Shown: positions 10,927-26,346 of the stretch, piece after piece | Layout of the letters: each line of letters begins with the position of its first letter | Position numbering within the stretch: the first letter of the stretch is position 1 | Origin: a virus | Taxonomy: Duplodnaviria > Caudoviricetes | DNA: 64,000 bases | Strand: one strand, 5' to 3' | Virus record (IMG/VR): IMGVR_UViG_3300009431_000002 | Span: 1-64,000 of that record | Notes under the pieces: generated by a model | The model's database searches: none | What the model saw: the letters and a program-made list of their open reading frames with translations, nothing else | Told to the model about the DNA's origin: nothing | Made by a program: the position numbers and the translations under genes

Positions 10927-11349
10927 GTGACATCCGTACCTGTGGGCGTCAAGCCCAGCGACATCGACGTGTCCAATCACTTCTGGGATGCGTTCGATCA
11001 CATGGAGACCGAGATCTCCGCCCGATGGATCGTCCGGTTCCTGCAGGACCGCGACGACACATGGGGTCCGTTCACCCGCGAGGAGCTCGAGGCGTACTAC
11101 ACCGCGCCCGGCCGCCGGCCCGCGGGAGAGCGCTTCAACTTCAACCGGCTGGTCAGCCCCGAACTCGTGCCGCGTGACGCCGCCGCTGCGTTCGCCGGGT
11201 TCATCGGGGACAGGGTGGAGAAGGGCGGCGGCTGGGTCGAGAGGACCGACGGCCGCTACCAGGTCACCGAGGATTTCATTCGCCGCTGCGCCGAAGGGCG
11301 ACAGAAGGCACGAGAGGAGACGCAGGATGACGGACAGCAACGGGACTGA
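10927..11349 (+). CDS. Hypothetical protein
   Basis: AGGAGG RBS, GTG start, typical codon bias. Confidence 0.7.
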   Translation: MTSVPVGVKPSDIDVSNHFWDAFDHMETEISARWIVRFLQDRDDTWGPFTREELEAYYTAPGRRPAGERFNFNRLVSPELVPRDAAAAFAGFIGDRVEKGGGWVERTDGRYQVTEDFIRRCAEGRQKAREETQDDGQQRD

Positions 11350-12208
11350 GCACGTCGAGCCGGACGGTGGCTGGGGCAAGCCCACGGGTACGCCACCGCC
11401 CGACTGGGCCGCGTGGCGGGAGGAGCAGGGGCACTACGTGGTCCAGCTCCGCAACGGCAGCGAGGAGGTCTACGGCCTCGTCACGGTGGTGCTGCTGAGC
11501 ATCCGGAGCGCCTTCGCCCCCGCCACCGAAGAGGAGATGCGGGCGATGGAGCCCACCCAGCTCGGCGACGAGCTGCGGAAGGCCACCTCCCTCTACGACC
11601 TCGTGATGATGGCCCAGGACCCGGAGTACCGCGAGCAGGTCTCCCCGGACAACATCGCGTTCCTCAAGCGCTTCAATCTCGTCGAGGCCGACGGGCGCAT
11701 GCACGGGTCCACCCGCAACATCGTCCGCTCGGCGTTCGAGATCGGCGCCAAGGGCCAGATGCCGGTCCAGAACAATCCGCTGCTTCGCAGGGGCGACGTG
11801 CCCGACCGTCGGGAGGACAAGTCGTTCGAGGACCCGCTGATGCGGATGATGCGGACGACGCCGAGCCCCGTCGCCGACCCCATCCCGGAGGTGCCGGGGG
11901 ACCAGCGGCCCGTCGCGGGCGAGGTGTTCGTCGGCAAGGCCTCCCGCGGCCGCGTGGTGGTGCTGCCGCCGTCGATGAACCCGAGCATCTTCCCGCACCA
12001 CGACACGGTGGTCTACACCAACGAGAAGTGGCCCACGGAGGAGCACCTCCAGTCCCACCAGCCGCACACCATGCGGACCGCGGTGTTCCTGGACACGTTC
12101 GACCGCGTCGAGGACGACGTCATCGGCACCGAGCAGCTGCGGGAGATCGCCAGCCGCTTCGGCGACCCCAACCAGTGGATCCACGCCGACAAGGAGACCG
12201 AGGAGTAG
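11327..12208 (+). CDS. Hypothetical protein
   Basis: Start reassigned to MTDSNGTEH; strong GC3 bias. Confidence 0.7.
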   Translation: MTDSNGTEHVEPDGGWGKPTGTPPPDWAAWREEQGHYVVQLRNGSEEVYGLVTVVLLSIRSAFAPATEEEMRAMEPTQLGDELRKATSLYDLVMMAQDPEYREQVSPDNIAFLKRFNLVEADGRMHGSTRNIVRSAFEIGAKGQMPVQNNPLLRRGDVPDRREDKSFEDPLMRMMRTTPSPVADPIPEVPGDQRPVAGEVFVGKASRGRVVVLPPSMNPSIFPHHDTVVYTNEKWPTEEHLQSHQPHTMRTAVFLDTFDRVEDDVIGTEQLREIASRFGDPNQWIHADKETEE

Positions 12209-12235
12209 CCTGAGTCCCTCCAGCCGGAGGGGCCA

Positions 12236-12258
12236 GGGGCGCGCCCGACGCGCGCCCC
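12236..12258. terminator. GC hairpin between convergent units
   Basis: GGGGCGCGC-ccgac-GCGCGCCCC followed by a T-rich stretch on the plus strand. Confidence 0.5.
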
Positions 12259-12272
12259 GCTTATCTTAGAGT

Positions 12273-12349
12273 TGGTGCGGGTGCTCGGGATCGAACCGAG
12301 GACCTCCTGGTCCCGAACCAGGCGCGCTACCAGACTGCGCTACACCCAC
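12273..12349 (-). tRNA. tRNA-Pro(CGG)
   Basis: Cloverleaf; CCTGG-TT CGG GA-CCAGG; CCA encoded; G1:C72. Confidence 0.93.
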
Positions 12350-12352
12350 ACC

Positions 12353-12429
12353 TGGGGCCGACGCTCGGAATCGAACCGAGAACCTGCTGATTACGAGTCA
12401 GCTGCTCTGCCTGGTTGAGCTACGTCGGC
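12353..12429 (-). tRNA. tRNA-Thr(CGT)
   Basis: GCTGA-CT CGT AA-TCAGC; CCA encoded. Confidence 0.95.
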
Positions 12430-12430
12430 G

Positions 12431-12507
12431 TGGTGCCCCGACCCTGAATTGAACAGGGGACCCCGGACTTATCAGGTCCGTGCTCTACCGGACTGAGCTA
12501 CCGGGAC
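12431..12507 (-). tRNA. tRNA-Ile(GAT)
   Basis: CGGAC-CT GAT AA-GTCCG; CCA encoded. Confidence 0.95.
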
Positions 12508-12556
12508 ACGGGAACTATTCAGTTGTGCATAGGTGCGCCCACCCGGACCGGGCGGG

Positions 12557-12592
12557 CTAGATAATGGTCGTAGGTGGTGTCAGCCAACGCAT
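12557..12592 (-). CDS. Leaderless leader peptide MRWLTPPTTII (Ile/Thr/Pro operon)
   Basis: ATG CGT TGG CTG ACA CCA CCT ACG ACC ATT ATC TAG, 6 nt after TG-C-TACAGT; hairpin GCCCGCCCG-GTC-CGGGTGGGC at the stop. Confidence 0.8.
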   Translation of the reverse strand: MRWLTPPTTII

Positions 12593-12598
12593 GAGGGC

Positions 12599-12607
12599 AC
12601 TGTAGCA
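12599..12607 (-). promoter_or_regulatory. Extended -10 promoter TG-C-TACAGT
   Basis: Identical motif at 14181-14189; no good -35. Confidence 0.6.
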
Positions 12608-12622
12608 CAGGAGGTAGGGTTG

Positions 12623-12676
12623 TGGTAGCCCGACCCGGACTCGAACCGGGGACCTTCGGTATCTAGCCGAAGATCC
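12623..12676 (-). pseudogene. 3' half of a tRNA (anticodon arm remnant, T-arm, acceptor strand, CCA)
   Basis: TTCGG-CTAGATA-CCGAA GGTC CCCGG-TTCGAGT-CCGGG TCGGGCT A CCA; overlaps the stop codon of the 12663 ORF; no matching 5' acceptor strand. Confidence 0.7.
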
Positions 12677-13424
12677 CTTCCACGCGGCCGGCTCGACCCG
12701 ACTGAGTCAGGGTCTTCCCCATGATGTGCCGGGCTTGTCGTTGGGCCATCTCGCCCGCCTGCTCTGGTGACATCTCCGGTAGTTCCTTGGCGCCTCGGAG
12801 GAATCTCCTCTTCATGGCGGCCGGGACCCTCTGGCCGCTTTCCAGGAATTGATGAGCGCGGGGGTCCTTGAACACCTGCGCGAACTGCTGACGGAGAAGC
12901 TCGGTTTCCCCGGTAGCCTCTCTCATTTCCCGCAGTCGCCGGGCAGCGTGCCTCAAGCTCTTGGCTTGCCCCTTCGGAGCGGCCAGACGGTTCAGGAGGT
13001 TCAACTCCTCTACCAGCACTCCGGGGCTGAGGTGAAGACTCTTGCCTAGAGGTACGGCCTTCCTCTCCAACCCCTCATGCAGCGTGAGGAGTGTCTTTGG
13101 GCCACGGCCTTCCACCCCAGGGAGCAGGCCCTTTGCCGCAGACGGGCCGTAGAAGATTCTCCCGGCGTGACGCCCGTACCTGGACTGGAGAGCCTGCACC
13201 AGCTCTTCTGGGATCATTCCCCGCTGCCACTCGAAGAACTCTGGATGCTTGAGGGACTTGCGGATGTGGGCCTTCGTCGGGATCAGCGTCGCTCCCAGCT
13301 GACCCGCCAGCCCCCTAGACCTGGTAGGTGCCAGTCTCCTGGCTGCCGCGTACAGCTCCTGAGCGGACGCAGCCTCCTTGATCTTGCAGAGCTCGTCAAC
13401 GAAAGCCGGGAAGGAGGGACTCAC
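12663..13424 (-). CDS. Hypothetical protein with N-terminal FVDELCKIKEAA motif
   Basis: ORF track; codon usage less GC3-biased than flanks; contains LHEGLE segment. Confidence 0.7.
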   Translation of the reverse strand: MSPSFPAFVDELCKIKEAASAQELYAAARRLAPTRSRGLAGQLGATLIPTKAHIRKSLKHPEFFEWQRGMIPEELVQALQSRYGRHAGRIFYGPSAAKGLLPGVEGRGPKTLLTLHEGLERKAVPLGKSLHLSPGVLVEELNLLNRLAAPKGQAKSLRHAARRLREMREATGETELLRQQFAQVFKDPRAHQFLESGQRVPAAMKRRFLRGAKELPEMSPEQAGEMAQRQARHIMGKTLTQSGRAGRVEGIFG

Positions 13425-13433
13425 GCTCAGAGA

Positions 13434-13829
13434 CTACCCCACCTCGTAGTCGGCCGTAAAGCGGATACCCTTCTTCTGCCCGTTCTTGGGCGGGGTGATC
13501 CGCAACGCGGCTACGCGGATGGCTACATCTTCTACGGGCACCAGGTAGACCTTGTCCAGATCGGGGCAGTAGACACCGAAGAGCTCGACTTGCCCCCTGT
13601 ACCCCTTCCGCTTCCTGGTGCGGTAATCCACGCTGCAGGGGTCGAACTGCACCGCGCCGTTCCGCAGGCGCCCGGTCTTGCACTGGATGCGCTTGAACTC
13701 CCCGTCGTCGTCCATGACGAGGTCGTACCGTTGGTTGTCCCCGAAGGGCTGGAGCATGACCTTCCCTGCCTTGAGGAGGGTGCCGAGGATCACGCCTTCC
13801 GACTTCTCACCGACTTCCTTGGTGTTCAT
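13434..13829 (-). CDS. PD-(D/E)XK family endonuclease (homing-type)
   Basis: GEKSEGVI...PFGDNQRYDLVMD...IQCKTG; leaderless promoter upstream. Confidence 0.85.
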   Translation of the reverse strand: MNTKEVGEKSEGVILGTLLKAGKVMLQPFGDNQRYDLVMDDDGEFKRIQCKTGRLRNGAVQFDPCSVDYRTRKRKGYRGQVELFGVYCPDLDKVYLVPVEDVAIRVAALRITPPKNGQKKGIRFTADYEVG

Positions 13830-13835
13830 GGGGCC

Positions 13836-13864
13836 AGCGTACCTGAGAGCGTCGGGTAGGTCAA
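13836..13864 (-). promoter_or_regulatory. Promoter TTGACC-17-TACGCT, 6 nt before ATG (leaderless)
   Basis: Read directly. Confidence 0.7.
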
Positions 13865-13874
13865 CCGGAGGTGT

Positions 13875-13950
13875 TGGTAGGTCTGGCTGGGCTCGAACCA
13901 GCGACTTCTGCCGTGTGAAAGCAGCACTCTCCCAACTGAGTTACAGACCC
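13875..13950 (-). tRNA. tRNA-Val(CAC)
   Basis: CTGCT-TT CAC AC-GGCAG; CCA encoded. Confidence 0.93.
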
Positions 13951-13988
13951 ACTGACACCGCTGCTCTCCCTAGCTGAGCTACCGGCCC
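13951..13988 (-). pseudogene. 5' half of a tRNA (acceptor strand + D-arm), truncated
   Basis: GGGCCGG TA GCTC AGCTAGGGA GAGC A GCGG... abutting tRNA-Val; no T-arm. Confidence 0.65.
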
Positions 13989-13989
13989 G

Positions 13990-14066
13990 TGGTGGAGGCG
14001 ACAGGAATCGAACCTGCGACCTGCTGCGTGCAAGGCAGCTGCTCTCCCAGCGTGAGCTACGCCCCC
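13990..14066 (-). tRNA. tRNA-Ala(TGC)
   Basis: GCTGC-CT TGC AC-GCAGC; G3:U70; CCA encoded. Confidence 0.95.
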
Positions 14067-14111
14067 ACGGCGAAGATGTAGATGTAGAGGGTCGCTCCCC
14101 GAACCGGGGAG

Positions 14112-14174
14112 CTAGATCGCGGCCACGACAACTGGCAGCGCGAGGAAGACGGAGAGTCGTGCGAGACGTTCCAT
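14112..14174 (-). CDS. Leaderless leader peptide MERLARLSVFLALPVVVAAI (Ala/Val operon)
   Basis: 6 nt after TG-C-TACAGT; hairpin GCTCCCCG-GTT-CGGGGAGC at the stop. Confidence 0.8.
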   Translation of the reverse strand: MERLARLSVFLALPVVVAAI

Positions 14175-14180
14175 GCCGCG

Positions 14181-14189
14181 ACTGTAGCA
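14181..14189 (-). promoter_or_regulatory. Extended -10 promoter TG-C-TACAGT
   Basis: Identical to 12599-12607. Confidence 0.6.
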
Positions 14190-14193
14190 CAAG

Positions 14194-14269
14194 TGGCGCG
14201 AGCTGTGGGAATCGAACCCACCCAGTTGGTTTTGGAGACCAACTCGCCTGCCTTGGGACATGAGCCCGC
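14194..14269 (-). tRNA. tRNA-Trp(CCA)
   Basis: TTGGT-CT CCA AA-ACCAA; atypical D-arm; CCA encoded. Confidence 0.88.
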
Positions 14270-14271
14270 AC

Positions 14272-14347
14272 TGGAACCCCCGACTGGACTCGAACCAGCG
14301 CACGGCGGATTAGAACTCCGCTGCTCTTCCAACTGAGCTACGGGGGC
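14272..14347 (-). tRNA. tRNA-Arg(TCT)
   Basis: GCGGA-GT TCT AA-TCCGC; CCA encoded. Confidence 0.9.
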
Positions 14348-14404
14348 CGACTTGACTGAACTCCCCTACTTGACCGGCTGCTCAAGCGGCCGGGTTTGGT
14401 CAAG

Positions 14405-14480
14405 TGGTACAGACGTCAGGGGTCGAACCTGAAACCACTGGGGCCACATCCCAGCGCTCTGCCAGTTGAGCTACGTCTGC
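14405..14480 (-). tRNA. tRNA-His(GTG)
   Basis: CTGGG-AT GTG GC-CCCAG; A73 and no encoded G-1. Confidence 0.88.
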
Positions 14481-14483
14481 ACG

Positions 14484-14561
14484 TGGTACCCGCGGGAGGA
14501 CTCGAACCTCCGACCTTCCGGTTCGTAGCCGGACGCTCTAGGTCCACTGAGCTACGCGGGC
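14484..14561 (-). tRNA. tRNA-Arg(ACG)
   Basis: TCCGG-CT ACG AA-CCGGA; CCA encoded. Confidence 0.95.
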
Positions 14562-14564
14562 ACG

Positions 14565-14639
14565 TGACCCCGGCAGGACTCGAACCTGCGACCTCCGCGT
14601 CCGGAGCGCGGCGCTCTGGGTCCACTGAGCTACGGGGCC
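14565..14639 (-). tRNA. tRNA-Arg(CCG), CCA not encoded
   Basis: CCGCG-CT CCG GA-CGCGG. Confidence 0.92.
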
Positions 14640-14651
14640 GGTTGTCAAAGA

Positions 14652-14727
14652 TGGCGGTGCCGCCAGGACTCGAACCTGGAACCAGAGCGTTAACAGCGCC
14701 CCGCTCTAGCCATTGAGCTACGACACC
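14652..14727 (-). tRNA. tRNA-Asn(GTT)
   Basis: GGGCG-CT GTT AA-CGCTC; G1:C72; CCA encoded. Confidence 0.93.
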
Positions 14728-14728
14728 G

Positions 14729-14803
14729 TGGTTGCTGCGCCTGGGGTCGAACCAGGGACCTGCCGGTTATGAGCCGGCTGCTCTACCGCTGAGCCACGCA
14801 GCA
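14729..14803 (-). tRNA. tRNA(CAT), elongator Met more likely than Ile2; not initiator
   Basis: GCCGG-CT CAT AA-CCGGC; lacks the GGG/CCC initiator stem. Confidence 0.85.
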
Positions 14804-14806
14804 TCG

Positions 14807-14879
14807 AGGGTCGACCGGGACTCGAACCCGGATCTCCGGATTAAAGGTCCAGGGCGTTATCCATTACGCTCATCGACCC
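14807..14879 (-). tRNA. tRNA-Lys(TTT), CCA not encoded, C33
   Basis: CTGGA-CC TTT AA-TCCGG; acceptor GGGTCGA/TCGACCC. Confidence 0.8.
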
Positions 14880-14880
14880 A

Positions 14881-14956
14881 TGGAGGGTGGAGGGGGACTC
14901 GAACCCCCAACCGCCGGATTAAGAGTCCAGCGCTCTACCTGTTGAGCCATCCACCC
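14881..14956 (-). tRNA. tRNA-Lys(CTT)
   Basis: CTGGA-CT CTT AA-TCCGG; CCA encoded. Confidence 0.95.
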
Positions 14957-14962
14957 GCAGTT

Positions 14963-15008
14963 CTCCGTCTCCACCTGCCGCCCCTTCGGGCAACAAGTAG
15001 ACACGGAG
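14963..15008 (-). promoter_or_regulatory. Long leader hairpin (putative attenuator element)
   Basis: CTCCGT/ACGGAG, TCTACTTG/CAGGTGGA, TTGCCC-GAAG-GGGCGG; G-U pairs work only on the minus strand. Confidence 0.65.
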
Positions 15009-15022
15009 GGGCGGACGCAGAT

Positions 15023-15073
15023 TTACCTGTGCTTGTTCCAGCGGTGCATGAAGGTGGGTCTGACGAAGGTCAT
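15023..15073 (-). CDS. Leaderless leader peptide MTFVRPTFMHRWNKHR (Lys/Met/Asn/Arg/His/Trp operon)
   Basis: ATG ACC TTC GTC AGA CCC ACC TTC ATG CAC CGC TGG AAC AAG CAC AGG TAA, 6 nt after TACGCT. Confidence 0.85.
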   Translation of the reverse strand: MTFVRPTFMHRWNKHR

Positions 15074-15079
15074 GTGGCG

Positions 15080-15108
15080 AGCGTAGACCAGCTCGAGATG
15101 GAGGTCAA
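15080..15108 (-). promoter_or_regulatory. Promoter TTGACC-17-TACGCT
   Basis: Read directly; same hexamers as 13836-13864. Confidence 0.75.
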
Positions 15109-15111
15109 CGG

Positions 15112-15195
15112 ATCCCGACATGAATCCCGACTTCGTGTCGGGATAGCCCCACGCACGTCATCCGGATCCCGACAGGGGTTGACGACACAGTGTCG
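15112..15195. repeat. Operator-like repeats between divergent tRNA promoters
   Basis: ATCCCGAC at 15112, 15124, 15166 and inverted at 15137-15144; palindrome CGACAC-A-GTGTCG at 15183-15195. Confidence 0.6.
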
Positions 15196-15207
15196 CCGTG
15201 CTGTACT
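15179..15207 (+). promoter_or_regulatory. Promoter TTGACG-17-TGTACT, 7 nt before ATG
   Basis: Paralogous to TTGACA-17-TGTAGT at 18744-18772; -10 is non-canonical. Confidence 0.6.
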
Positions 15208-15214
15208 CCGGCCC

Positions 15215-15271
15215 ATGCACTCCTTCGACATCCAATTCGGATTGTCGCTACAGCTCCTGGGTACCCAGTAG
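15215..15271 (+). CDS. Leaderless leader peptide MHSFDIQFGLSLQLLGTQ (Leu/Gly/Gln operon)
   Basis: Read directly; paralog at 18678-18737; followed by alternative GC hairpins. Confidence 0.85.
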   Translation: MHSFDIQFGLSLQLLGTQ

Positions 15272-15327
15272 TCGCCGCCCCCGTACGCCCGTAACCCCGG
15301 GTAGCCGGGGGCGGGAGAAGTGCGTTT

Positions 15328-15413
15328 GGGAGAGTGGCGGAATGGTAGACGCGCGGGTTTCAGGAGCTCGTGTCCTTCGCGGCGTGGGGGTTCGACTCCC
15401 CCCTCTCCCACCA
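15328..15413 (+). tRNA. tRNA-Leu(CAG)
   Basis: CGGGT-TT CAG GA-GCTCG; long variable arm; A73, CCA. Confidence 0.93.
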
Positions 15414-15415
15414 GT

Positions 15416-15500
15416 GCCGGAGTGGCGGAACGGTAGACGCGCGGGTCTGAGGGGCTCGTGTCCGAGTGGCGTCCGGGTTCGACTCCCGGTTCCGGCACCA
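15416..15500 (+). tRNA. tRNA-Leu(GAG)
   Basis: CGGGT-CT GAG GG-GCTCG; long variable arm; CCA. Confidence 0.93.
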
Positions 15501-15514
15501 CAACAAGAACTCGT

Positions 15515-15592
15515 GCGGGAGTAGCTCCAACTGGCTAGAGCAGCGGCCTTCCAAGCCGACGGTTCAGGGTTCGAGCCCCTGTTCCCGCACCA
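15515..15592 (+). tRNA. tRNA-Gly(TCC)
   Basis: CGGC-CT TCC AA-GCCG; A73; CCA. Confidence 0.9.
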
Positions 15593-15593
15593 T

Positions 15594-15671
15594 GTGCCGG
15601 GGCGCAAGGCGTCATAGGGAGAAGGGGACGGCCTCGCTCCTGTTTCGCGTGGGGAAACCCACCCCCGGCAC
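15594..15671 (+). ncRNA. Unclassified tRNA-sized structured RNA
   Basis: 9-bp GTGCCGGGG/CCCCGGCAC closing stem, GTGGG-GAAA-CCCAC arm, two inner hairpins; no TTC loop, no CCA. Confidence 0.5.
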
Positions 15672-15673
15672 CT

Positions 15674-15749
15674 GTGGGCATGGCGCAGTCGGTGGCGCGT
15701 CGGGTTGCCAATCCGAAGGTCGCGGGTTCGAGCCCCGCTGCCCACACCA
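15674..15749 (+). tRNA. tRNA-Gly(GCC) with atypical acceptor
   Basis: TCGGG-TT GCC AA-TCCGA; U2:A71, A73; CCA. Confidence 0.87.
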
Positions 15750-15757
15750 ACAGCTTT

Positions 15758-15846
15758 GCGAGCGTGGCGGAATTGGTATACGCGCCGGATTCAAAATCCG
15801 GTGGTCCTTCGCGGCCGTGCAGGTTCGATGCCTGCCGCTCGCACCA
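15758..15846 (+). tRNA. tRNA-Leu(CAA)
   Basis: CCGGA-TT CAA AA-TCCGG; long variable arm; CCA. Confidence 0.95.
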
Positions 15847-15848
15847 GA

Positions 15849-15924
15849 TGGGGAGTAGTTCAGTTGGTAGAACGGTTGGCTCTGGACCAGCATGTCGGGG
15901 GTTCGAGTCCCTCCTCCCCATCCA
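15849..15924 (+). tRNA. tRNA-Gln(CTG)
   Basis: GTTGG-CT CTG GA-CCAGC; U1:A72; CCA. Confidence 0.93.
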
Positions 15925-15981
15925 TCGTGAAACCCGGCTCGAAATCGGGATAAGGGCCCCGAACCCGAAGCAGGAGGTAGC

Positions 15982-18060
15982 ATGCCCGAATTCAAGCCGT
16001 TCGCCGAGCTTGTCCGATCCGCGTTCCAGGAGATGGCCGCCGGTGGGCTCTTCGTCGTCAACATCAGTGGGGACGACCTGTACGAGTCCTACCTGGGTGC
16101 GTTCCCGGACGGCACCAATCCCGTCTTCCGTGAGCGCACCGAGCACGACTGCAGCAGCTGCAAGCACTTCATCCGCCGCGTGGGCATGGTCATCGACCAG
16201 GACCGCAACACGGTCTGGGACAAGGCCGCCCGAACGGCCGAGTACCCCTACAACGAGGTGGCCTCCGACCTGGCCGCCATGGTCAAGGCCGCTCCGATCC
16301 GCGACGTCTTCCGCGTCCAGGAGAGCGGCATCGGCACCGCCATGAACCGCGGCGTGAGCCCGTCGGGCCAGGTCGAGCGCTGGCACCACTTCCACACCGG
16401 CAGCATCCCGAAGCGCTTCCGCGCGGCGAGCCCGGGGGAGGCCCAGGGCGCGTACCGCACCACCGTCCAGGTCTTCCGGCGCGGGCTGGAGGAGCTGACC
16501 ACCGACGCCCTGGAGACCGTGCTGGCGCTGATCGACGCCAACAACCTCTATCGGGGCGAGGAGCACCGCGAGAAGGTGGCGGGCTTCCTCAAGACGCAGC
16601 AGGAGTTCCTCGACCTCGGCGCCGTTGACCGGGAGCGCTTCGTCTGGGCACGCGCCGACGACCCGGCCACCCGCTTCCGCAACACCGCCATCGGCACCCT
16701 GGTCCAGGACCTGAGCGAGGGCATGGACGTCACGAAGGCGGTCAAGCGGTTCGAGGCGAAGGTCGCGCCGGAGAACTACAAGCGCACCTCGGCCGTCATC
16801 ACCCCCGGCATGGTCAAGGAGGCCATGAAGACCATCACGACGATGGATCTGGAGCCCGCCCTGGAGCGGCGGTTCGCCCGCGTCGAGGACGTCAACGTCA
16901 ACGACGTGCTGTGGGTGGACAACCAGGTCAAGCCGCTGATGGCCGGCGGCCTCGGCGACATGCTCATGGACCACGCCCAGGCAGCGCAGGGCTACGAGCT
17001 CGACGAGAAGCGCGCCGAGGACATCGCCGTCGACGAGTTCCTGGCCAGCGTGCTCCCCGAGGCCGCGGCCGTGGAGCTGCTGCTGAAGACCGCGCACCTG
17101 GGCAACCTGATGTCGCTCACGGCGCCGGTCCACCCGGCGCCCCACCAGCTGTTCCAGTGGGACAACGACTTCGCCTGGTCCTACGCCGGCAACATGGCCG
17201 ACTCCGAGCTGCGCAAGCGCGTGTCCGCCGCCGGCGGACGCGTGGACGGGGCGTTCCGCTTCTCTCACTCGTGGAACCACGACAAGCGCAACGCCTCGCT
17301 GATGGACCTCCACGTCTTCATGCCCGGGAACGGGACCTCGTACTCCCGGCCCGGGACCACCCACGACGTCTACGGCAACAACGAGCGCGTGGGGTGGAAC
17401 CACCGACAGCATCCCAGGTCCGGCGGCGTCCAGGACGTGGACTACGTGAAGGAGGCGCCTCCCGGGTACATCCCCGTCGAGAACATCACGTTCCCCGACA
17501 TCACGCGGATGCGTCCCGGCACGTATATCTGCAAGATCCACAACTGGCAGCTCCGACAGCCCACGCAGGGCGGCTTCCAGGCCGAGATCGAGTTCGGCGG
17601 GCAGGCGTTCACCTACGAGCACCTGGCACCCCTCAAGCACAAGGAGTGGGTGACGGTCGCCACGGTGACGCTGAAGCATGGCGAGTTCTCCATCGAGCAC
17701 CACCTGCCGTGCGGCACGGCCGCCCAGGAGAAGTGGGGCCTGACGTCCGAGCGGTTCGTCAAGGTCAACTTCGTGACCCTGAGCCCCAACCACTGGGGCG
17801 ACAACGCCGTGGGCAACCGCCACACGCTCTTCGTGCTCGACGGCGCGAAGAACGACGAGCCCTGCCGAGGCATCTACAACGAGTTCCTGCACCCCCGCCT
17901 GATCAAGCACCGCAAGGTGTTCGAGGTCATCGGCGACAAGACGAAGTGCCAGCCCACCGAGGGCCAGCTGTCCGGCGTCGGCTTCTCGTCCACGAAGCGC
18001 GACGCCGTGCTCATCAAGATCGACAACCAGCGCCTGTACCGCGTCCGGTTCGGCGCGTAG
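15982..18060 (+). CDS. Large conserved-looking phage protein (692 aa), function unknown
   Basis: AGGAGG RBS; YLxxFPxGTN...EHDCSSCKHFI N-terminal Cys motif; RFSHSWN...MDLHV C-terminal beta domain. Confidence 0.85.
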   Translation: MPEFKPFAELVRSAFQEMAAGGLFVVNISGDDLYESYLGAFPDGTNPVFRERTEHDCSSCKHFIRRVGMVIDQDRNTVWDKAARTAEYPYNEVASDLAAMVKAAPIRDVFRVQESGIGTAMNRGVSPSGQVERWHHFHTGSIPKRFRAASPGEAQGAYRTTVQVFRRGLEELTTDALETVLALIDANNLYRGEEHREKVAGFLKTQQEFLDLGAVDRERFVWARADDPATRFRNTAIGTLVQDLSEGMDVTKAVKRFEAKVAPENYKRTSAVITPGMVKEAMKTITTMDLEPALERRFARVEDVNVNDVLWVDNQVKPLMAGGLGDMLMDHAQAAQGYELDEKRAEDIAVDEFLASVLPEAAAVELLLKTAHLGNLMSLTAPVHPAPHQLFQWDNDFAWSYAGNMADSELRKRVSAAGGRVDGAFRFSHSWNHDKRNASLMDLHVFMPGNGTSYSRPGTTHDVYGNNERVGWNHRQHPRSGGVQDVDYVKEAPPGYIPVENITFPDITRMRPGTYICKIHNWQLRQPTQGGFQAEIEFGGQAFTYEHLAPLKHKEWVTVATVTLKHGEFSIEHHLPCGTAAQEKWGLTSERFVKVNFVTLSPNHWGDNAVGNRHTLFVLDGAKNDEPCRGIYNEFLHPRLIKHRKVFEVIGDKTKCQPTEGQLSGVGFSSTKRDAVLIKIDNQRLYRVRFGA

Positions 18061-18071
18061 AGAGGAGAACT

Positions 18072-18485
18072 ATGGACACCGCCAAGATGTACGAGGTCGC
18101 GCTCCGCAACAAGCTCCGGTTCGAGAGCCCCAAGGGCCCGCTGAGCCTGGAGCACCTGTGGGACGTGCCGCTGCGCTCCCGCACCAACTTCAACCTGGAC
18201 ACCATCGCCCGGACCGCCAGCCGCGATCTCAAGGAGACGTCCGAGGAGAGCTTCGTCGCCACGCGCAAGAGCCCGAAGCAGACGCTGGCCGAGGTCAAGC
18301 TCGAGCTCGTCAAGCACGTCATCGCGGTCAAGCTCGCCGAGGAGGAGAAGGCCGAGAAGCGCGCCGACGCCGTCAAGCGCAAGGAGAAGCTGACGGAGAT
18401 CCTGGAGCGCAAGCAGGACGCCAAGTTCGAGGAGATGGACGAGGCCGCCATCCGCAAGGAGCTCGCCGAGCTCGACGCCTCCTGA
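18072..18485 (+). CDS. Phage protein with coiled-coil C-terminus, partner of the 692-aa gene
   Basis: RBS GAGGAG; KLRFESPKGPLSLEHLWDVPL. Confidence 0.85.
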   Translation: MDTAKMYEVALRNKLRFESPKGPLSLEHLWDVPLRSRTNFNLDTIARTASRDLKETSEESFVATRKSPKQTLAEVKLELVKHVIAVKLAEEEKAEKRADAVKRKEKLTEILERKQDAKFEEMDEAAIRKELAELDAS

Positions 18486-18496
18486 CCCCACGCCCT

Positions 18497-18525
18497 GGGA
18501 GGGCCGGCACGCCGCCGGTCCTCCC
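18497..18525. terminator. Hairpin between convergent units
   Basis: GGGAGGGCCGGC-acgcc-GCCGGTCCTCCC. Confidence 0.55.
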
Positions 18526-18537
18526 GTTAGCTCGGAA

Positions 18538-18622
18538 TGGCGGAGAGGGTGGGAATCGAACCCACACGCCCGAAGACACGAGGTCCTGAACCCCGCGCGT
18601 CTACCAATTCCGCCACTCTCCC
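18538..18622 (-). tRNA. tRNA-Leu(CAG) copy with a Ser-like 3' end (chimera, G73)
   Basis: 5' part near-identical to 15328 copy; 3' end CCCTCTCC G CCA; acceptor pairs only as 6 bp GGAGAG/CTCTCC. Confidence 0.75.
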
Positions 18623-18677
18623 ACACGCACTTCTCCCGCCCCCGGCTACCCGGGGTTCGGGCGTACGGGGGCGGCGA

Positions 18678-18737
18678 CTACTGGATACCCAGAAGCTGGA
18701 GCGACAATCCGAGGACTTGGATGTCGGAGACGTGCAT
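18678..18737 (-). CDS. Leaderless leader peptide MHVSDIQVLGLSLQLLGIQ (duplicate Leu leader)
   Basis: 6 nt after TTGACA-17-TGTAGT; paralog of 15215-15271. Confidence 0.8.
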   Translation of the reverse strand: MHVSDIQVLGLSLQLLGIQ

Positions 18738-18743
18738 GGGGGC

Positions 18744-18772
18744 ACTACAGCACGGCCCGCCAAGCGTGTCAA
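18744..18772 (-). promoter_or_regulatory. Promoter TTGACA-17-TGTAGT
   Basis: Read directly. Confidence 0.65.
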
Positions 18773-18815
18773 GTTCTCGGTATAAGACGGATGAACCTAA
18801 CCACGAGAGGTAACC

Positions 18816-19472
18816 ATGACCACCTGGACCGTTATCGTTGGCAACATCGGCACCGTCTACGAGGGGTGCAACAGCCACGAGGCGCAGCAGTCGTACAAGA
18901 CCTACGTCAGCCTCTCCCAGCAGGGGTACGGCCGGGGGGGTGACGAGGTCGTAACCCTCATCAAGGGCGAGGAGATCGTGCAGGAGCATCTCCCCGACCT
19001 CGACGAGCCCCACAAGGTGAGCGAGGGCACGGACGCCCATGCCTACTACCGCGCTCTGCAGCGGGCCGAGGGGGAACTCCACCAGCTCCAGAAGGACCAC
19101 CGGACCACCCTGGCCCACACCCTGGCCCACAACCAGGCGCAGTCCAAGAAGCTCACCGAGCTGGGCAATACCGTCTCAGCACTGAAGAGCCTACTGCGCA
19201 AGATGGCCGAGCAGCGGCTGCTCGACAAGATTCACCACTTCAGCAGGGACGCCTCCATCGTCCCCAGCGGTCTCCCCGAGGCCAACACCAGCAGCGAGGA
19301 GGAGAGGGCTGCGCTGCGCGCACTCCAGTCCCAAGGCTTGGTGGAGCGAGTGGGGGAACAGCGCTGGGCGGCGTATCGCCTGACCTACGAGGGGCGTACC
19401 CGACGCGACTACCTGCACAACCACTACAACCTCGACGCATCGCTGATGCGCTACCTGACGGAGAACACATGA
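18816..19472 (+). CDS. Hypothetical protein (coiled coil, possible C-terminal winged helix)
   Basis: RBS GAGG; coupled to next gene. Confidence 0.7.
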   Translation: MTTWTVIVGNIGTVYEGCNSHEAQQSYKTYVSLSQQGYGRGGDEVVTLIKGEEIVQEHLPDLDEPHKVSEGTDAHAYYRALQRAEGELHQLQKDHRTTLAHTLAHNQAQSKKLTELGNTVSALKSLLRKMAEQRLLDKIHHFSRDASIVPSGLPEANTSSEEERAALRALQSQGLVERVGEQRWAAYRLTYEGRTRRDYLHNHYNLDASLMRYLTENT

Positions 19473-20713
19473 AGACTGCAACGCTACTCGGCCTCGAAGC
19501 CCAACAGATCAACATCCTCGTGAGCAGGGAGCCCAGCGCGGGCCACAGGTTCTGGATCATCGGACTACCCGCTCACGCTACCGGGGAGACCGCCGCGAGA
19601 GTTCGCGCTGCCATCGTGGCCAGCGGATACGAGTTCCCGTCTGGGGTCTCCGTGCGGCTGTTCCCCGACGACGTGCCCAAGTACGGCACCCACTACGACC
19701 TGCCCATCGCCCTGGCCATCATCGACGCCCTCTACCTCGCCAAGGTGCACTTCACCTCCCACTACCTGCCCGTGGGCGAGCTGGGACTGAACGGTGAGGT
19801 GCGGCCCGTCCGCGGCGTGCTGGCCATGCGCTCGGCGGAGGATCTCAACACCAGTGGAGTCCTCTGCCCCTACGACAACATCGCCCAGGCGGCCATGTAC
19901 CCCGGCGGGGTCGGCAGCGTCTTCGGCGTCCGCACCCTGCAGGAAGCCGTCGCCTACGCCAGCGGGGAGATCGCCGACCCCACTCCGCCTCCTGTGCCGG
20001 TCCCGCCCTCCCAGGACGTCGTCGACATGTACGACGTAAGGGGCCATAAACGGGCCAAAAGGGCTATGGAGGCGGCTGCCGTCAATGGCGCCAACATCCT
20101 CCTGCAGGGACCGGCTGGCTGCGGCAAGACCATGCTGGCCCGCCGGTTCCCTACCATCCTACCTACCATGCACGCGGTGGAGGAGCACGGCGTGGCGCGC
20201 ATCTTCAGCGCCTCCGGTCTGACGGCTCCTGGCGCCGCGGCCTACGTGACCACGAGGCCCTTCCGCGCGCCGCACCACACGTGCTCAGCGCAGGCCCTCG
20301 TGGGCGGTGGGGTGCCTGTCCGCCCCGGCGAGGTCACGCTGGCCCACAACGGAGTGCTCTTCCTGGACGAGCTGCCCGAGTTCCCGCGGGCCGCCATCGA
20401 CGCCCTGCGGCAGCCGCTGAGGGAGAAGAGGGTCACCTTCGCCCGTGCGGGCATGGTCTACGAGTTCCCCGCCAGCTTCCAGCTGGTGGCCGCGGCCAAC
20501 CACTGCCCCTGTGGGAGATTGATGCAGCAGTGCACCTGCAGCAGTGCCGAGCTGCGCCGGTACACGGCGCGCGTCGATGAGCTGGTGGACAAGCTGGAGC
20601 TGGAGGTCATCCAGGTGAAGGGGGCCAACCCCTACCAGCTGTACGACGAGCCCAAGGGCGAAACATCGGAGACCATCCGGGAGCGGGTGGAGGAGGCACG
20701 AAGAAATGACTGA
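19469..20713 (+). CDS. comM: YifB/ComM family Mg-chelatase-like AAA+ ATPase, C-terminally shortened
   Basis: Lon-like N-domain (IGLP...YDLPIALAI), Walker A GPAGCGKT, PFRAPHHT, Walker B LFLDELPEF, CPCG...CTC. Confidence 0.9.
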   Translation: MKTATLLGLEAQQINILVSREPSAGHRFWIIGLPAHATGETAARVRAAIVASGYEFPSGVSVRLFPDDVPKYGTHYDLPIALAIIDALYLAKVHFTSHYLPVGELGLNGEVRPVRGVLAMRSAEDLNTSGVLCPYDNIAQAAMYPGGVGSVFGVRTLQEAVAYASGEIADPTPPPVPVPPSQDVVDMYDVRGHKRAKRAMEAAAVNGANILLQGPAGCGKTMLARRFPTILPTMHAVEEHGVARIFSASGLTAPGAAAYVTTRPFRAPHHTCSAQALVGGGVPVRPGEVTLAHNGVLFLDELPEFPRAAIDALRQPLREKRVTFARAGMVYEFPASFQLVAAANHCPCGRLMQQCTCSSAELRRYTARVDELVDKLELEVIQVKGANPYQLYDEPKGETSETIRERVEEARRND

Positions 20714-21404
20714 CAACTACCAGCAGTGGAGCGAGATCATCGAGGATCTGACGGGCGAGGAGATCGCCTGGATCAACGAAGACCTCCTCCGGTTCAGTCC
20801 GGGGGAAGACGGAGGCATCATCGAGCGTGGCGGGGACACCCTGCTGCTCATCGACAAGAACGGCAACTGGACTCCGCTGGGAGAGCAGTGGCGCGAGAAG
20901 CACCCGGCGTTCACCGAGGACGACTACGCCTGGCCCAGCTTCGACTGGTCCATCAGCACCTACAAGGGAGAGCCCCACATCTGGTTCCGGGGCGACTCCG
21001 GCTGCAACCTGGAGCACCTCGCTGACTTCGTGCACAGGTTCATCAAGAAGTTCCGCCCAGACATGATCTTCAAGCTCACCTGGGCCGAGTGGTGCTCTGG
21101 CCCCCGTGTCGGCGAGTTCGGCGGCGGCTGGTTCGTCGCGCACAAGGGTGGCGTGGAGTGGGGGAACACCTACGAGGACACCAAGATCTGCGCCGACCGG
21201 ATCAAGCACCCCTGGCTGACCGACAGGGTCCAGTTCGCCCGTCTCCTCTGCGAGATGAGCGCCCTGGGACTGCCGGACGGTGAGGACAACTGGGATCTCT
21301 TCAACGACCTGAAGGAGAACATGGACCTCACCGACAATGACATCGACGAGCTGTTCGAGCGCGCCCACAAAGTGTGGGAGGACGCGAAGGAGAGGATGAC
21401 GTAA
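20706..21404 (+). CDS. Hypothetical protein
   Basis: Coupled ORF with typical codon bias. Confidence 0.7.
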   Translation: MTDNYQQWSEIIEDLTGEEIAWINEDLLRFSPGEDGGIIERGGDTLLLIDKNGNWTPLGEQWREKHPAFTEDDYAWPSFDWSISTYKGEPHIWFRGDSGCNLEHLADFVHRFIKKFRPDMIFKLTWAEWCSGPRVGEFGGGWFVAHKGGVEWGNTYEDTKICADRIKHPWLTDRVQFARLLCEMSALGLPDGEDNWDLFNDLKENMDLTDNDIDELFERAHKVWEDAKERMT

Positions 21405-21718
21405 TGGAGGTGCACCCACCTGTGCGGGTGTTCTGCTTCGAGTGTGGAGACGAGATCGAGGTGGTGGACACACAACGAGAAGAAGACGGCTCGCTGTCTG
21501 TCAGCATCTCCGGTGCCTGTGAGCGCGAGTGCCAGCAGGCGGCAGAGAAGTCCTCCTGGGCGGCGCACCAGCGCGAACAGCAGATACAAGAGAGGGCCGA
21601 CCGCCTACTCCGTGAGGAGCGGCAGAACGCCGAAACCGAGCGGTTCCTGCGCGATGAGCGCGACCGCAAAAACAAACAGGATCGCGCCTTCTGGCGCGCG
21701 ATGGGATGGAACCGATGA
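21404..21718 (+). CDS. Hypothetical protein (CxxC Zn ribbon, coiled coil)
   Basis: TAATG coupling; CFEC and CEREC. Confidence 0.6.
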   Translation: MEVHPPVRVFCFECGDEIEVVDTQREEDGSLSVSISGACERECQQAAEKSSWAAHQREQQIQERADRLLREERQNAETERFLRDERDRKNKQDRAFWRAMGWNR

Positions 21719-21951
21719 TCCTGCCTGGCTACAAGACCAACTACGAGACCCTGCTCCGCGCCGCCAAGGCTGGCGACCTGGCGCTGGTGGAGTGCACCAG
21801 CATCGAGACCGGAGAGCCCGTCTTCGTGATCTGTAGCGTCCACGTGAGCGATGGCGAGTACGTCATGACTCCACTGGCCAAGATGTTCGACGGCAACCCC
21901 TACGAGGAGGTGGCTCCTCCCAGCTCGGAGAGGCCAGAGAATGAGAGCTAG
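21715..21951 (+). CDS. Hypothetical protein
   Basis: ATGA coupling. Confidence 0.65.
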   Translation: MILPGYKTNYETLLRAAKAGDLALVECTSIETGEPVFVICSVHVSDGEYVMTPLAKMFDGNPYEEVAPPSSERPENES

Positions 21952-22141
21952 GGTCACCGCCACCCTCGACAAGCGCGTGCTGGCGCTACTCAAGGAGGAG
22001 GCAGCCCGTATGAACACGTCGGTCTCACACTTGATCGAGCGGAGCATCTGGAGGGCAATCAACTCCCCCGAAGGGCTAGGTGTGGACGATGTCGACGAAG
22101 CCATCAACAGGTACAAGGAAAGGAAAGATCATGCCGACTGA
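21941..22141 (+). CDS. Ribbon-helix-helix (CopG-like) DNA-binding protein
   Basis: RVTATLDKRVLALLKEEAARMNTSVSHLIE pattern. Confidence 0.65.
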   Translation: MRARVTATLDKRVLALLKEEAARMNTSVSHLIERSIWRAINSPEGLGVDDVDEAINRYKERKDHAD

Positions 22142-22143
22142 GG

Positions 22144-22587
22144 ATGGGCAGCATGCTACTTCGTGAGGCGCGGGTCACCTACACCAGCAGGCGCATCGAC
22201 CTGAAGCGCAAGTCCCTCAAGGGTTCCCAGGAGGCGTACGACGTGGTGAAGCACATCTTCACCCCGGGAGACCCCCAGGAGCGCTTCTACGTCGTCCTGC
22301 TGAACGCCAAGCACATGTACGAGGGCCACGCGCTGGTGTCTGTGGGGACTCTGGACGCAGCCATCGTTCACCCCCGAGACGTGTTCCGCCCCGCCGTTGC
22401 ACAGAGCAGCGCACTTGTAATCCTGGCCCACTACCACCCCTCGGGCGACCCAACACCTTCCGCAGAAGACGTGGCCGTCACCAAGCGGCTGGTCGCTGCG
22501 GGGGAGGTTCTGGGCATCGACGTACTGGACCACTTGATCATCTCGGATGAGAGCTGGTGCTCCATGCGGGACAGAGGAGAGATATGA
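22144..22587 (+). CDS. radC: RadC-like JAB domain protein
   Basis: VHPRDVF...AHYHPSGDPTPSAED...LDHLII. Confidence 0.9.
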   Translation: MGSMLLREARVTYTSRRIDLKRKSLKGSQEAYDVVKHIFTPGDPQERFYVVLLNAKHMYEGHALVSVGTLDAAIVHPRDVFRPAVAQSSALVILAHYHPSGDPTPSAEDVAVTKRLVAAGEVLGIDVLDHLIISDESWCSMRDRGEI

Positions 22588-22760
22588 GCATCGCCATCAC
22601 CGGGACCCCCAACCGGGAGCGCACCTACGACGCGGGCTTCGGCGGCGCGGACAACCCTTTCCCCGACGACCCCGAGCTGTCCCGCTACTACGAGCTGGGG
22701 CGGCGGTGCCGAACCGATTGGCGGATGGAGCAGGCGATGGGCCGAATGGAGGCCCAGTGA
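22584..22760 (+). CDS. Small hypothetical protein
   Basis: Coupled to neighbours. Confidence 0.55.
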   Translation: MSIAITGTPNRERTYDAGFGGADNPFPDDPELSRYYELGRRCRTDWRMEQAMGRMEAQ

Positions 22761-22966
22761 CCGACCCCAAACAACTGGCCCGGGACCTGTTGCGGGACTT
22801 CGTCAGCGACATGCGCTGGGCCAAGAAGCAGGACGTCGCGTACCTCAAGAAGGTCCGCAAGGAGTTCCAGCTCTTCTGGCCCACCAGGCACAACCCCAAG
22901 TTCGACGAGTTTGGCTGGCCCGTAGTGCTGGCTGAGTTCAGCACCTTCAAGGAGGGAACACCATGA
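22757..22966 (+). CDS. Small hypothetical protein
   Basis: GTGA coupling, GGAGG RBS. Confidence 0.6.
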   Translation: MTDPKQLARDLLRDFVSDMRWAKKQDVAYLKKVRKEFQLFWPTRHNPKFDEFGWPVVLAEFSTFKEGTP

Positions 22967-23202
22967 TCACCTGGGACGCCAAGGCTGTCGTAATCTGGTG
23001 CGGTACGTGTACGGCTCATGGCCGGACACTACGGCTCGAAGTCGAACCGTCAACCCTGGTCGTGGCCGATACCGTCTGGTACTGGCGAGTCCGCGACGAG
23101 GAGGGCGCTGTCCAGAAGAACGGGACGCGGCACTCCGCTCTGCAGGCCAAGGCATCCTGTACCCGAGCGGCTAACAAGTACGCCAAGGCGCCGCGGCCGT
23201 GA
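22963..23202 (+). CDS. Small hypothetical protein
   Basis: ATGA coupling, GGAGG RBS. Confidence 0.55.
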   Translation: MITWDAKAVVIWCGTCTAHGRTLRLEVEPSTLVVADTVWYWRVRDEEGAVQKNGTRHSALQAKASCTRAANKYAKAPRP

Positions 23203-23296
23203 GTGTCCTTGACCAACTCTCTGCCGTCTCGTGCATCGCAGTGGCACTGCTGCTCATCCCCTGTGTCGCGCACCTCATCACTGAAAGGAAAGACCG

Positions 23297-23830
23297 TTGA
23301 TCACCTACGAAGACCTGATCCGTCCGCTCAAGGAGGGCGGGCACTACGAAGTGTCCCCCCAGACCATCTACAGCTTCCTGACGCTCGTCAAGAAGGGCGA
23401 CCGGGCGTTGCTCTACCAGGGCCACATGTTCGACAGCAGCCAGATGGGCAAGACGGCCCTGACCGTAGCTGGCCCCGGCCGTACCATCGACGACCCCGAC
23501 AACCCGCCCAAGCGTATCGGCAACGCGCCGTCCAACTTCAAGGAGCTGGAGGGTGAGGTGGACATCCCCAGCCTCCGCGCGGGCATCAAGGACTTCGACC
23601 CCATCTCACGCGAGAAGTGCGTCGCCGCGGCCGAGAAGTACCTCGGAGACGGGCAGCACGGCGAGCTGCTGTGGGAGACCTACCTCTGCACCATCACCAA
23701 TTCGGGCTACCAGGCAAGCGTGAAGGGTGAGATGACCCCGCTCAAGGAGCTGGGCCTCGTCTCGTACCGAGCGAAGTACCCGGCTGGGTGGACGCTCACC
23801 AGCAAGGCCTGGAAGATCCTGGAGGCGTGA
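23297..23830 (+). CDS. Hypothetical protein
   Basis: AAGGA RBS, TTG start, typical codon bias. Confidence 0.65.
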   Translation: MITYEDLIRPLKEGGHYEVSPQTIYSFLTLVKKGDRALLYQGHMFDSSQMGKTALTVAGPGRTIDDPDNPPKRIGNAPSNFKELEGEVDIPSLRAGIKDFDPISREKCVAAAEKYLGDGQHGELLWETYLCTITNSGYQASVKGEMTPLKELGLVSYRAKYPAGWTLTSKAWKILEA

Positions 23831-24012
23831 TGTCCGACGCACAACGCATCGAACAGCTGGAGGAGCAGGTCGCGCGTGTCCGCCTGATGTGCAAGACCCT
23901 GCTGGAGGAGATCGAGGAGAACCCGGTCGCCCAGGTCGGCAACGCGGCCATGGGCATCCGAACCGCTGTACGGGCGATCAACCACGCCCTGGGCGAGACG
24001 GAGGAGCCGTGA
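23830..24012 (+). CDS. Small hypothetical protein
   Basis: TGATG coupling. Confidence 0.6.
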   Translation: MSDAQRIEQLEEQVARVRLMCKTLLEEIEENPVAQVGNAAMGIRTAVRAINHALGETEEP

Positions 24013-24715: not shown

Positions 24716-24759
24716 CAGGAGGCCCGCGTTCTGCAGTGCCTTCTTTCTTAGATCAAAGT

Positions 24760-24848: not shown

Positions 24849-24926
24849 TTGCCGCTCGAGCACGCACCCAGAATCACAGAAGCTCCGAACATACCGGCCC
24901 TTTGTTCGGAGCTACTCCGAACATTG

Positions 24927-26330: not shown

Positions 26331-26346
26331 ACGTGTATTCAGTTGT

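Follow-up and report, generated by a model that had tools for sequence, protein, structure and literature searches.

Two tRNA operons of an uncultured phage share a very stable post-leader hairpin, a possible ribosome-gated stop or pause site without a U tract

The RNA segments that follow the leader mini-ORFs of two tRNA operons in an uncultured phage are paralogous and represent one element, in which a C/U-rich spacer of 14 nt leads into a very stable hairpin whose uppermost 12 nt are identical in both copies, and the data support selection on the hairpin fold. The DNA analysed, here called the window, covers the first 64 kb of an IMG/VR virus record of 201,921 bp (~67% GC, rated complete), and all 29 tRNA genes lie within 12.2–26.6 kb. 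We refer to the leader of the Lys array as U1 and to that of the Cys/Ser array as U2; both arrays have the minus strand as their sense strand, and the features of U1 and U2 are read along it. As the best reading, which we hold with slightly less than even confidence, we propose that the hairpin is a U-less stop or pause site gated by a ribosome on the mini-ORF. U1 comprises the following features.

15080–15108, minus strand: U1 promoter, −35 TTGACC (15108–15103), 17-nt spacer, −10 TACGCT (15085–15080)
15023–15073, minus strand: U1 leaderless mini-ORF MTFVRPTFMHRWNKHR, 16 codons, stop TAA at 15025–15023
15009–15022, minus strand: U1 14-nt spacer ATCTGCGTCCGCCC, containing the conserved CTGCGTC
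14963–15008, minus strand: U1 hairpin, 46 nt, 20 pairs with one G/G mismatch, GAAG loop, −38.4 kcal/mol
14881–14956, minus strand: tRNA-Lys(CTT), leading the array Lys, Lys, Met, Asn, Arg, Arg, His, Arg, Trp

Since the U1 ATG lies 6 nt past the −10 element, a leaderless mRNA is implied, and from the promoter-to-ATG spacing we infer that the mini-ORF is translated. After the stop codon, U1 reads AT-CTGCGTC-CGCCC-CTCCGTG-...-CCCGAAGGGGCG-G-CAGG-TGG, and the hairpin is separated from the first tRNA by a 6-nt tail, AACTGC. The fold of this post-leader segment is in the top 0.4% of the genome's 66-nt windows (z −5.2 versus shuffles), and its uninterrupted 14-pair stem is the joint third longest in 202 kb. 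The corresponding features of U2 are given below.

26719–26747, minus strand: U2 promoter, −35 TTGACC (26747–26742), −10 TACGGT (26724–26719), with the ATG 6 nt past the −10
26650–26712, minus strand: U2 leaderless mini-ORF MHTAAPLLSSSSYCFDSDSA, stop TAA at 26652–26650
26585–26647, minus strand: U2 hairpin, 24 pairs with bulges, −36.2 kcal/mol, predicted GAA triloop
26505–26580, minus strand: tRNA-Cys(GCA), 4 nt from the hairpin, leading the array Cys, Phe, Asp, Tyr, Ser, Ser, Ser

The order after the U2 stop is CTGCGTC-TGCGTCT-CTCCGTG-...-CCCGAAGGGGCG-CAGG-A-TGG. This segment folds within the top 0.9% of the genome's 66-nt windows (z −3.05 versus shuffles), and its upper stem (26624–26599) carries the top CCCGAAGGGGCG identical to that of U1. 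Because the lower stem of U2 is made of the duplicated CTGCGT spacer, the fold begins 3 nt past the stop, and the stems of U1 and U2 are out of common register. Both mini-ORFs mirror the tRNAs that they precede: the last residues of the U1 ORF all (8/8) match amino acids of the downstream tRNAs (Lys, Met, Asn, Arg, His, Trp; binomial P 2e-6), and residues 9–19 of the U2 ORF are in all 11 cases Ser, Tyr, Cys, Phe or Asp, the amino acids of its downstream tRNAs (binomial P 3.5e-9), the boundaries of these runs having been picked after the fact.

An earlier note on this DNA, made from the sequence alone, had pointed to CTGCGTC, CTCCGTG and CCCGAAGGGGCG(G)CAGG(A)TGG as common to the two post-leader segments (14957–15022 and 26581–26649, minus strand). 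All of them are present, with single-base indels, and CTCCGTG lies exactly 14 nt past the stop in U1 and U2 alike. The two segments have a global identity of 69% and a local alignment score of 38, against 14.0 ± 2.4 for dinucleotide shuffles, none of which reached it (0/5000; z 10.1). The promoters (45 nt) are also alike (z 5.6), and the 12-mer CCCGAAGGGGCG has no third site in the whole 201,921-bp genome. Together with the own-tRNA codons and the maintained stability, these similarities lend good support to the note's proposal of a common ancestry with exchanged sensor codons. The cassette was duplicated, and each copy then acquired sensor codons suited to its own tRNA set, with promoter and hairpin left in place. 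Long hairpins exist in both leaders, as had been stated, with a GAAG loop in U1 and a predicted GAA triloop in U2. The stems, described as different, are so only in part: the 5′ arms do differ and the lower stem of U2 has another 5′ partner, but conservation extends over the top and the greater part of the 3′ arm, including GGGGCG(G)CAGG in the upper 3′ arm. The differences between the 5′ arms are chiefly U/C changes that exchange G-U and G-C pairs.

Selection on the fold was assessed by placing the 8 substitutions and 9 indels that distinguish U1 from U2 at random and refolding the products. In this comparison, which draws on only two copies, randomly diverged copies folded to −25.0 ± 4.5 kcal/mol, versus −36.2 and −38.4 kcal/mol for the real partners (p 0.009 and 0.003). 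A MAFFT alignment of the two copies placed the loops out of register, and the RNAalifold consensus was poor (11 pairs, −6 kcal/mol). The fold is also strand-specific, with −38.4 versus −24.8 kcal/mol for sense and antisense in U1 and −36.2 versus −29.4 kcal/mol in U2, because 3–4 G-U pairs stabilize the sense strand. This asymmetry indicates that the element works as RNA, in the direction of the tRNAs. A function of the opposite strand was rejected, as the antisense fold is 7–14 kcal/mol weaker in the two units.

All six tRNA units of the phage (U1–U6) share one layout, namely a promoter, a leaderless codon-matched mini-ORF, a GC hairpin and the tRNAs. The remaining four units are as follows.

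15215–15271, plus strand: U3, before tRNA-Leu/Gly/Gln
15272–15316, plus strand: U3 post-leader hairpin, −31.3 kcal/mol, beginning at the first base past the stop of MHSFDIQFGLSLQLLGTQ
18737–18678, minus strand: U4, an inverted duplicate of U3, before a lone tRNA-Leu(CAG)
18634–18677, minus strand: U4 post-leader hairpin, paralogue of that of U3, with all stem positions as in U3
14174–14112, minus strand: U5, before tRNA-Ala/Val
14096–14110, minus strand: U5 short hairpin CTCCCCGgttCGGGGAG, 6 pairs, immediately past the stop of MERLARLSVFLALPVVVAAI
12592–12557, minus strand: U6, before tRNA-Ile/Thr/Pro
12538–12556, minus strand: U6 short hairpin CCCGCCCGgtcCGGGTGGG, 8 pairs, immediately past the stop of MRWLTPPTTII

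A genome-wide scan for a full promoter with a leaderless ORF of at most 30 codons returned U1–U4 and nothing else, which makes the cassette specific to tRNA units; U5 and U6 were recovered by an extended −10 scan. The pattern TTGAC-N18-TACNNT-N6-ATG occurs four times in the window, against 0 expected. The six units form three paralogous pairs, U1/U2, U3/U4 and U5/U6. U3 and U4 are 94.7% identical in the post-leader segment, 85% in the mini-ORF, 87.5% in the tRNA and 63% in the promoter, and U5 and U6 are related to each other, but between the three hairpin families there is no sequence in common (z about 0). The hairpins vary from 6 to 24 pairs and lie 4 to 30 nt from the tRNA, with those of U5 and U6 at 29–30 nt. 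In five of the six units (U2–U6) the 5′ arm starts 0–3 nt past the mini-ORF stop.

The earlier note had taken the module for an attenuator. A sensor ORF followed by a hairpin is indeed there, and the sensed codons, 8/8 in U1 and 11/11 in U2, are what a leader ORF of the trp/his type would carry. By contrast, a U tract past the hairpin is absent from all six units, the tails being AACUGC (U1), UUGA (U2), GAAGUGCG (U3/U4), GCGACCCU (U5) and CGCACCUA (U6), and modelling found no antiterminator in U1 and U3–U6, U2 alone having a competing fold, of different topology. Pairing of the sensor codons with the 5′ arm as a 2:3 antiterminator was unsupported, with duplex energies no better than those of codon-shuffled ORFs in any unit. 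The trp-type attenuator reading is thus supported only in part, and an attenuator in the classical sense, whose hallmarks are missing, is not supported. An Rfam scan of 11000–28000 at E ≤ 1 gave only tRNA-related matches and none on the leaders or hairpins.

We then consider what the ribosome could do to the hairpins, using a model in which ~27 nt are masked around each A-site position. The U1 hairpin formed with a probability of about 1.0 at all ribosome positions; its stem starts 14 nt past the stop and is therefore beyond the reach of the ribosome. The U3–U6 hairpins, whose 5′ arms lie within 0–3 nt of the stop, as does that of U2, formed with a probability of 0.87–0.94 and were lost only with the A site on the last 1–3 codons or the stop. 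The U2 hairpin was also lost at codons 14–16. The pairing of a coding segment with the 3′ arm that had been suggested for the Ser operon, that is U2, is real: codons 4–8 pair with the 3′ arm in the minimum-energy fold of the naked leader (−48.7 kcal/mol, versus −44.0 kcal/mol with the hairpin enforced). Such ORF-to-3′-arm pairing beats the hairpin thermodynamically in U2 only. Complementarity above that of codon-shuffled ORFs was found for U3 and U4 (p 0.004 and 0.011; −27.4 and −25.4 kcal/mol for the last five codons) and for U1 (p 0.045), and not for U2, U5 or U6; it matches the G-rich 3′ arm with a C-rich stretch of the ORF, and we record it without building a mechanism on it. In U3 and U4, the five codons that close the mini-ORF (GCUCCUGGGUACCC; 15252–15268 and 18685–18700) repeat the 5′ arm of the hairpin directly, in degenerate form.

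The element lies right after the leaderless codon-matched mini-ORF and is predicted to be transcribed in the tRNA sense from a sigma-70-type promoter. According to the reading that we favor, the host RNA polymerase would stop or pause at the U-less ("I-shaped") hairpin, where a leader-peptide attenuator would take its decision. The gate would be the position of the ribosome on the mini-ORF, which on the last codons or the stop would occlude the 5′ arm, and not a trp-type terminator/antiterminator pair; in U2 only, the competing ORF-to-3′-arm helix would provide an extra gate. Under pure occlusion, a ribosome at the end of the ORF would give read-through and an earlier stall would give termination. 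Since most sensor codons are too far upstream to occlude the hairpin, slow decoding would then lead to less read-through, the opposite, it seems, of what a supply sensor should do.

The hairpins have the shape of I-shaped terminators, being GC-rich and without a U trail. T-rich tails are rare on the hairpins of this genome (0.9% vs 0.4% by chance), and U-less GC hairpins of the same kind stand at the ends of tRNA operons and convergent genes (12236–12258, 18495–18526 and 39745–39774). In the high-GC bacterium Methylosinus sporium, U-less hairpins account for 78% of the highly structured transcript 3′ ends mapped by Term-seq, and the authors describe U-less terminators as common where genomes are GC-rich (PMC12403871). 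Whether such hairpins can release the polymerase is disputed, with work cited in PMC5335608 reporting that mycobacterial RNA polymerase does not terminate at U-less hairpins in vitro. A stronger form of our reading, which we consider doubtful, is that the cassette is a self-contained, swappable, U-less ribosome-gated stop by which the synthesis of a tRNA set would follow the decoding speed of the codons that this set reads.

The main rival, in our view unlikely although to be taken seriously, is that the hairpin is no switch and serves processing, insulation or stabilization of the transcript. Its tasks would be to prevent mispairing between the C-rich translated leader and the first tRNA, to define the context in which RNase P acts a few nucleotides further on, and to protect, as a 3′ stem-loop, the leader RNA that is cut off; the long stems of U1 and U2 could be RNase III substrates. 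Such roles fit hairpins that end 4–6 nt before the tRNA 5′ end in U1 and U2, that have neither U tract nor antiterminator and that, in U1, form whatever the ribosome position; they also fit a fold that is selected while its sequence beyond the cap is not common to the six units. As regards RNase III, for which about 20 or more near-continuous pairs are taken as the threshold, the stems of U1 (20 pairs) and U2 (24 pairs, with bulges) are long enough, but those of U5 (6 pairs) and U6 (8 pairs) are too short, so that RNase III processing is not the shared role of the six units. The U5 and U6 hairpins are, in addition, too far from the RNase P site. Processing also leaves unexplained why the 5′ arm starts so close behind the stop in five of the six units and why a hairpin is constantly combined with a codon-matched mini-ORF, and the related phage G001 drives its tRNA arrays from promoters without such a hairpin.

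Rho-dependent attenuation of a tna/mgtL-like kind appears improbable. The C-rich naked leader would here be a Rho loading site, shielded by a ribosome stalled on the sensor codons, and the hairpin would do no more than make the polymerase pause where the first tRNA begins and, once transcripts are terminated, guard their 3′ ends. This scheme needs neither U tract nor antiterminator, and it would run in the sensible direction, from stall to more tRNA, for a stall at any sensor codon. The mini-ORFs have more C than G in all six units, with (C−G)/(C+G) of 0.13–0.41 and U2 in the top 0.4% of genome windows, but this excess is explicable by the Ser, Pro, Thr, Leu and His codons. The leaders measure just 36–63 nt, and typical Rho loading sites, at ~60–80 nt, are longer. 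Rho should moreover be hindered by a hairpin of −38 kcal/mol on its way from the loading site to the polymerase. On the side of this explanation, Rho and translated upstream ORFs shape premature termination in a high-GC bacterium (bioRxiv 10.1101/2022.06.01.494293).

A sequence-specific binding site for a phage or host protein or for the polymerase, providing nut/put-type processive antitermination that would carry transcription through the long untranslated tRNA arrays, has very little probability. The element does lie just downstream of an early-type promoter, and U1 and U2 agree in every base of the 12-nt top and in much of the 3′ arm, with drift in the 5′ arm; the GCCC-GAAG-GGGC top also bears a superficial resemblance to lambda boxB. 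However, nut/put sites have a linear box and a specific hairpin loop common to all sites of one phage, and no boxA-like linear motif is shared by the six units, four of which have hairpin sequences and loops unrelated to those of U1 and U2. The CCCGAAGGGGCG cap also occurs in ordinary U-tailed terminators of unrelated phages and is therefore a generic stable cap. Finally, a duplication relic without a function of its own, in which leftover homology and the accidents of a GC-rich sequence produce the hairpin, would agree with the existence of two copies only, with searches that gave no orthologues and with the 0.4–0.9% of 66-nt windows that fold equally well in this 67% GC genome, but is hardly credible given a mini-ORF wholly rewritten between a conserved promoter and a hairpin of full stability (p 0.003–0.009), a hairpin at the same place in all six units and a G-U strand asymmetry that points to an RNA-level element.

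How does a ribosome-gated, U-less stop or pause hairpin compare with known systems? With the classical attenuators (trpL, hisL, leuL, pheL, thrL, ilv) the phage units share a short ORF with sensor codons followed by a stable hairpin before the controlled genes, and with thrL and ilvL also a leader that samples several amino acids. They differ in that they control tRNAs instead of biosynthetic enzymes, have a leaderless mRNA and lack a U tract, a 2:3 antiterminator and any match to an Rfam leader. In pyrBI-type attenuation, the terminator hairpin is physically obstructed by the ribosome that trails the polymerase; the pyrBI leader ORF extends across a U-tailed terminator, and what it senses is the speed of the polymerase (UTP). 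The closeness of the U2–U6 5′ arms to the stop recalls this arrangement and is the reason why, in the model, a ribosome on the last codons or the stop is the sole block to the U2–U6 fold. Unlike in pyrBI, the phage ORF stops short of the hairpin, the U1 stem, 14 nt away, is out of the ribosome's reach and there is no U tract.

The nearest published anatomical parallel is the mycobacterial leaderless polycysteine short ORF Ms5788A (bioRxiv 10.1101/834739), which likewise has sensor codons at the 3′ end of a leaderless ORF and an exceptionally stable duplex in a high-GC setting. This duplex stands in place of a moderate terminator/antiterminator pair, and Ms5788A exerts its effect at the level of translation, where it conceals the ribosome-binding site of the gene that follows (10.1101/834739). 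Because the genes downstream of the phage units are tRNAs, their output must, unlike that of Ms5788A, be transcription, processing or stability. High-GC I-shaped terminators resemble the phage hairpins as GC-rich stem-loops without a U trail, found also at the operon ends of this phage, but the hairpins described here are at the operon start and not at the end.

Why phages carry tRNAs and when they express them is an open question, and the coupling of tRNA synthesis to decoding speed by a cis-acting sensor would add a new regulatory principle for stable-RNA genes. If true, the proposed mechanism would turn the cassette into a homeostatic sensor of tRNA supply that has no described counterpart in the literature searched, in which we also found no description of leader-peptide control of phage tRNA genes. 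New here are the selection for fold in the hairpin half of the cassette, its modular evolution, with promoter and hairpin retained and sensor codons exchanged, and an anatomy unlike that of the textbook three-helix attenuator. As this anatomy lacks both a U tract and an antiterminator, any mechanism for these phage leaders must work without them.

Searches of phage records gave no homologues of the element, the matches being limited to tRNAs. Pattern scans of IMG/VR returned five matches to the hairpin top and seven to CTCCGTG plus the top, with no tRNA gene at any of these loci; of three such loci read in detail, one (L003) is without terminator features and two (L004, L005) are ordinary U-tailed terminators. 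CTGCGTC...CTCCGTG gave more than 119 chance matches in IMG/VR, none of them before a tRNA among the matches listed, and scans of IMG/VR for the U3/U4 hairpin and for the U1/U2 promoter each gave 0 matches. Relatives of the phage were found through a neighbouring 692-aa protein, at 54–57% identity for the best. One complete relative (G001, 176 kb, 53% GC) has at least 20 tRNAs directly behind promoters and no mini-ORFs, and a high-GC relative (G006) has no tRNAs. The tRNA region of the former (L028, G001:C1:131500–149500) contains an amber-suppressor-type tRNA(CUA), plain TTGACA-type promoters and at least one canonical U-tailed terminator.

Several further features of the tRNA region deserve mention. 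At 14948–15017 of the window, the U1 spacer sequence CGUCCGCCC can pair with the first 9 nt of tRNA-Lys(CTT), stacked beneath the hairpin (−16.3 kcal/mol), which is marginal against shuffles (p about 0.03); the joint fold of the U1 leader and tRNA-Lys gains 4.4 kcal/mol over the separate folds. A gate on RNase P common to both units, formed by the spacer and the 5′ acceptor strand of the tRNA, was rejected, as the pairing is not significant in U2 (p 0.19). Between the divergent U1 and U3 promoters, a stretch of 62 bp (15112–15173) contains four copies of the 8-mer ATCCCGAC, three direct and one inverted, and just two further copies occur in the 64 kb; a regulator that acts on both tRNA operons may use the repeats as an operator array. 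The U3 promoter itself contains one copy of the genome's dispersed 13-bp palindrome CGACACAGTGTCG (15183–15195), over the −35 element TTGACG and the spacer, and a protein bound there could repress the Leu/Gly/Gln tRNA operon.

Near U6, ARAGORN calls a 77-nt "tRNA-Ser(AGA)" at 12623–12699, which has no long variable arm and is not found by the Rfam tRNA model. The call covers the end of a 253-aa ORF and, with its 3′ part, the place expected for the −35 region of the U6 promoter; it may be spurious or a processing signal that resembles a tRNA. Positions 25017–25091, immediately upstream of tRNA-Ser(GGA), contain a tRNA-like 3′ half (T arm GCGGGGGTTCGAATCCCCCAC, end CCTCCTCCA), to which Rfam gives a weak, tmRNA-clan match of 21 bits. 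A promoter of the U1/U2 type with a leaderless ATG also precedes a 131-aa PD-(D/E)XK endonuclease gene between tRNA blocks, and an HNH endonuclease ORF lies between tRNA-Ser genes (13434–13864 and 25406–25876 for the two observations); these genes look like homing endonucleases inside the tRNA region.
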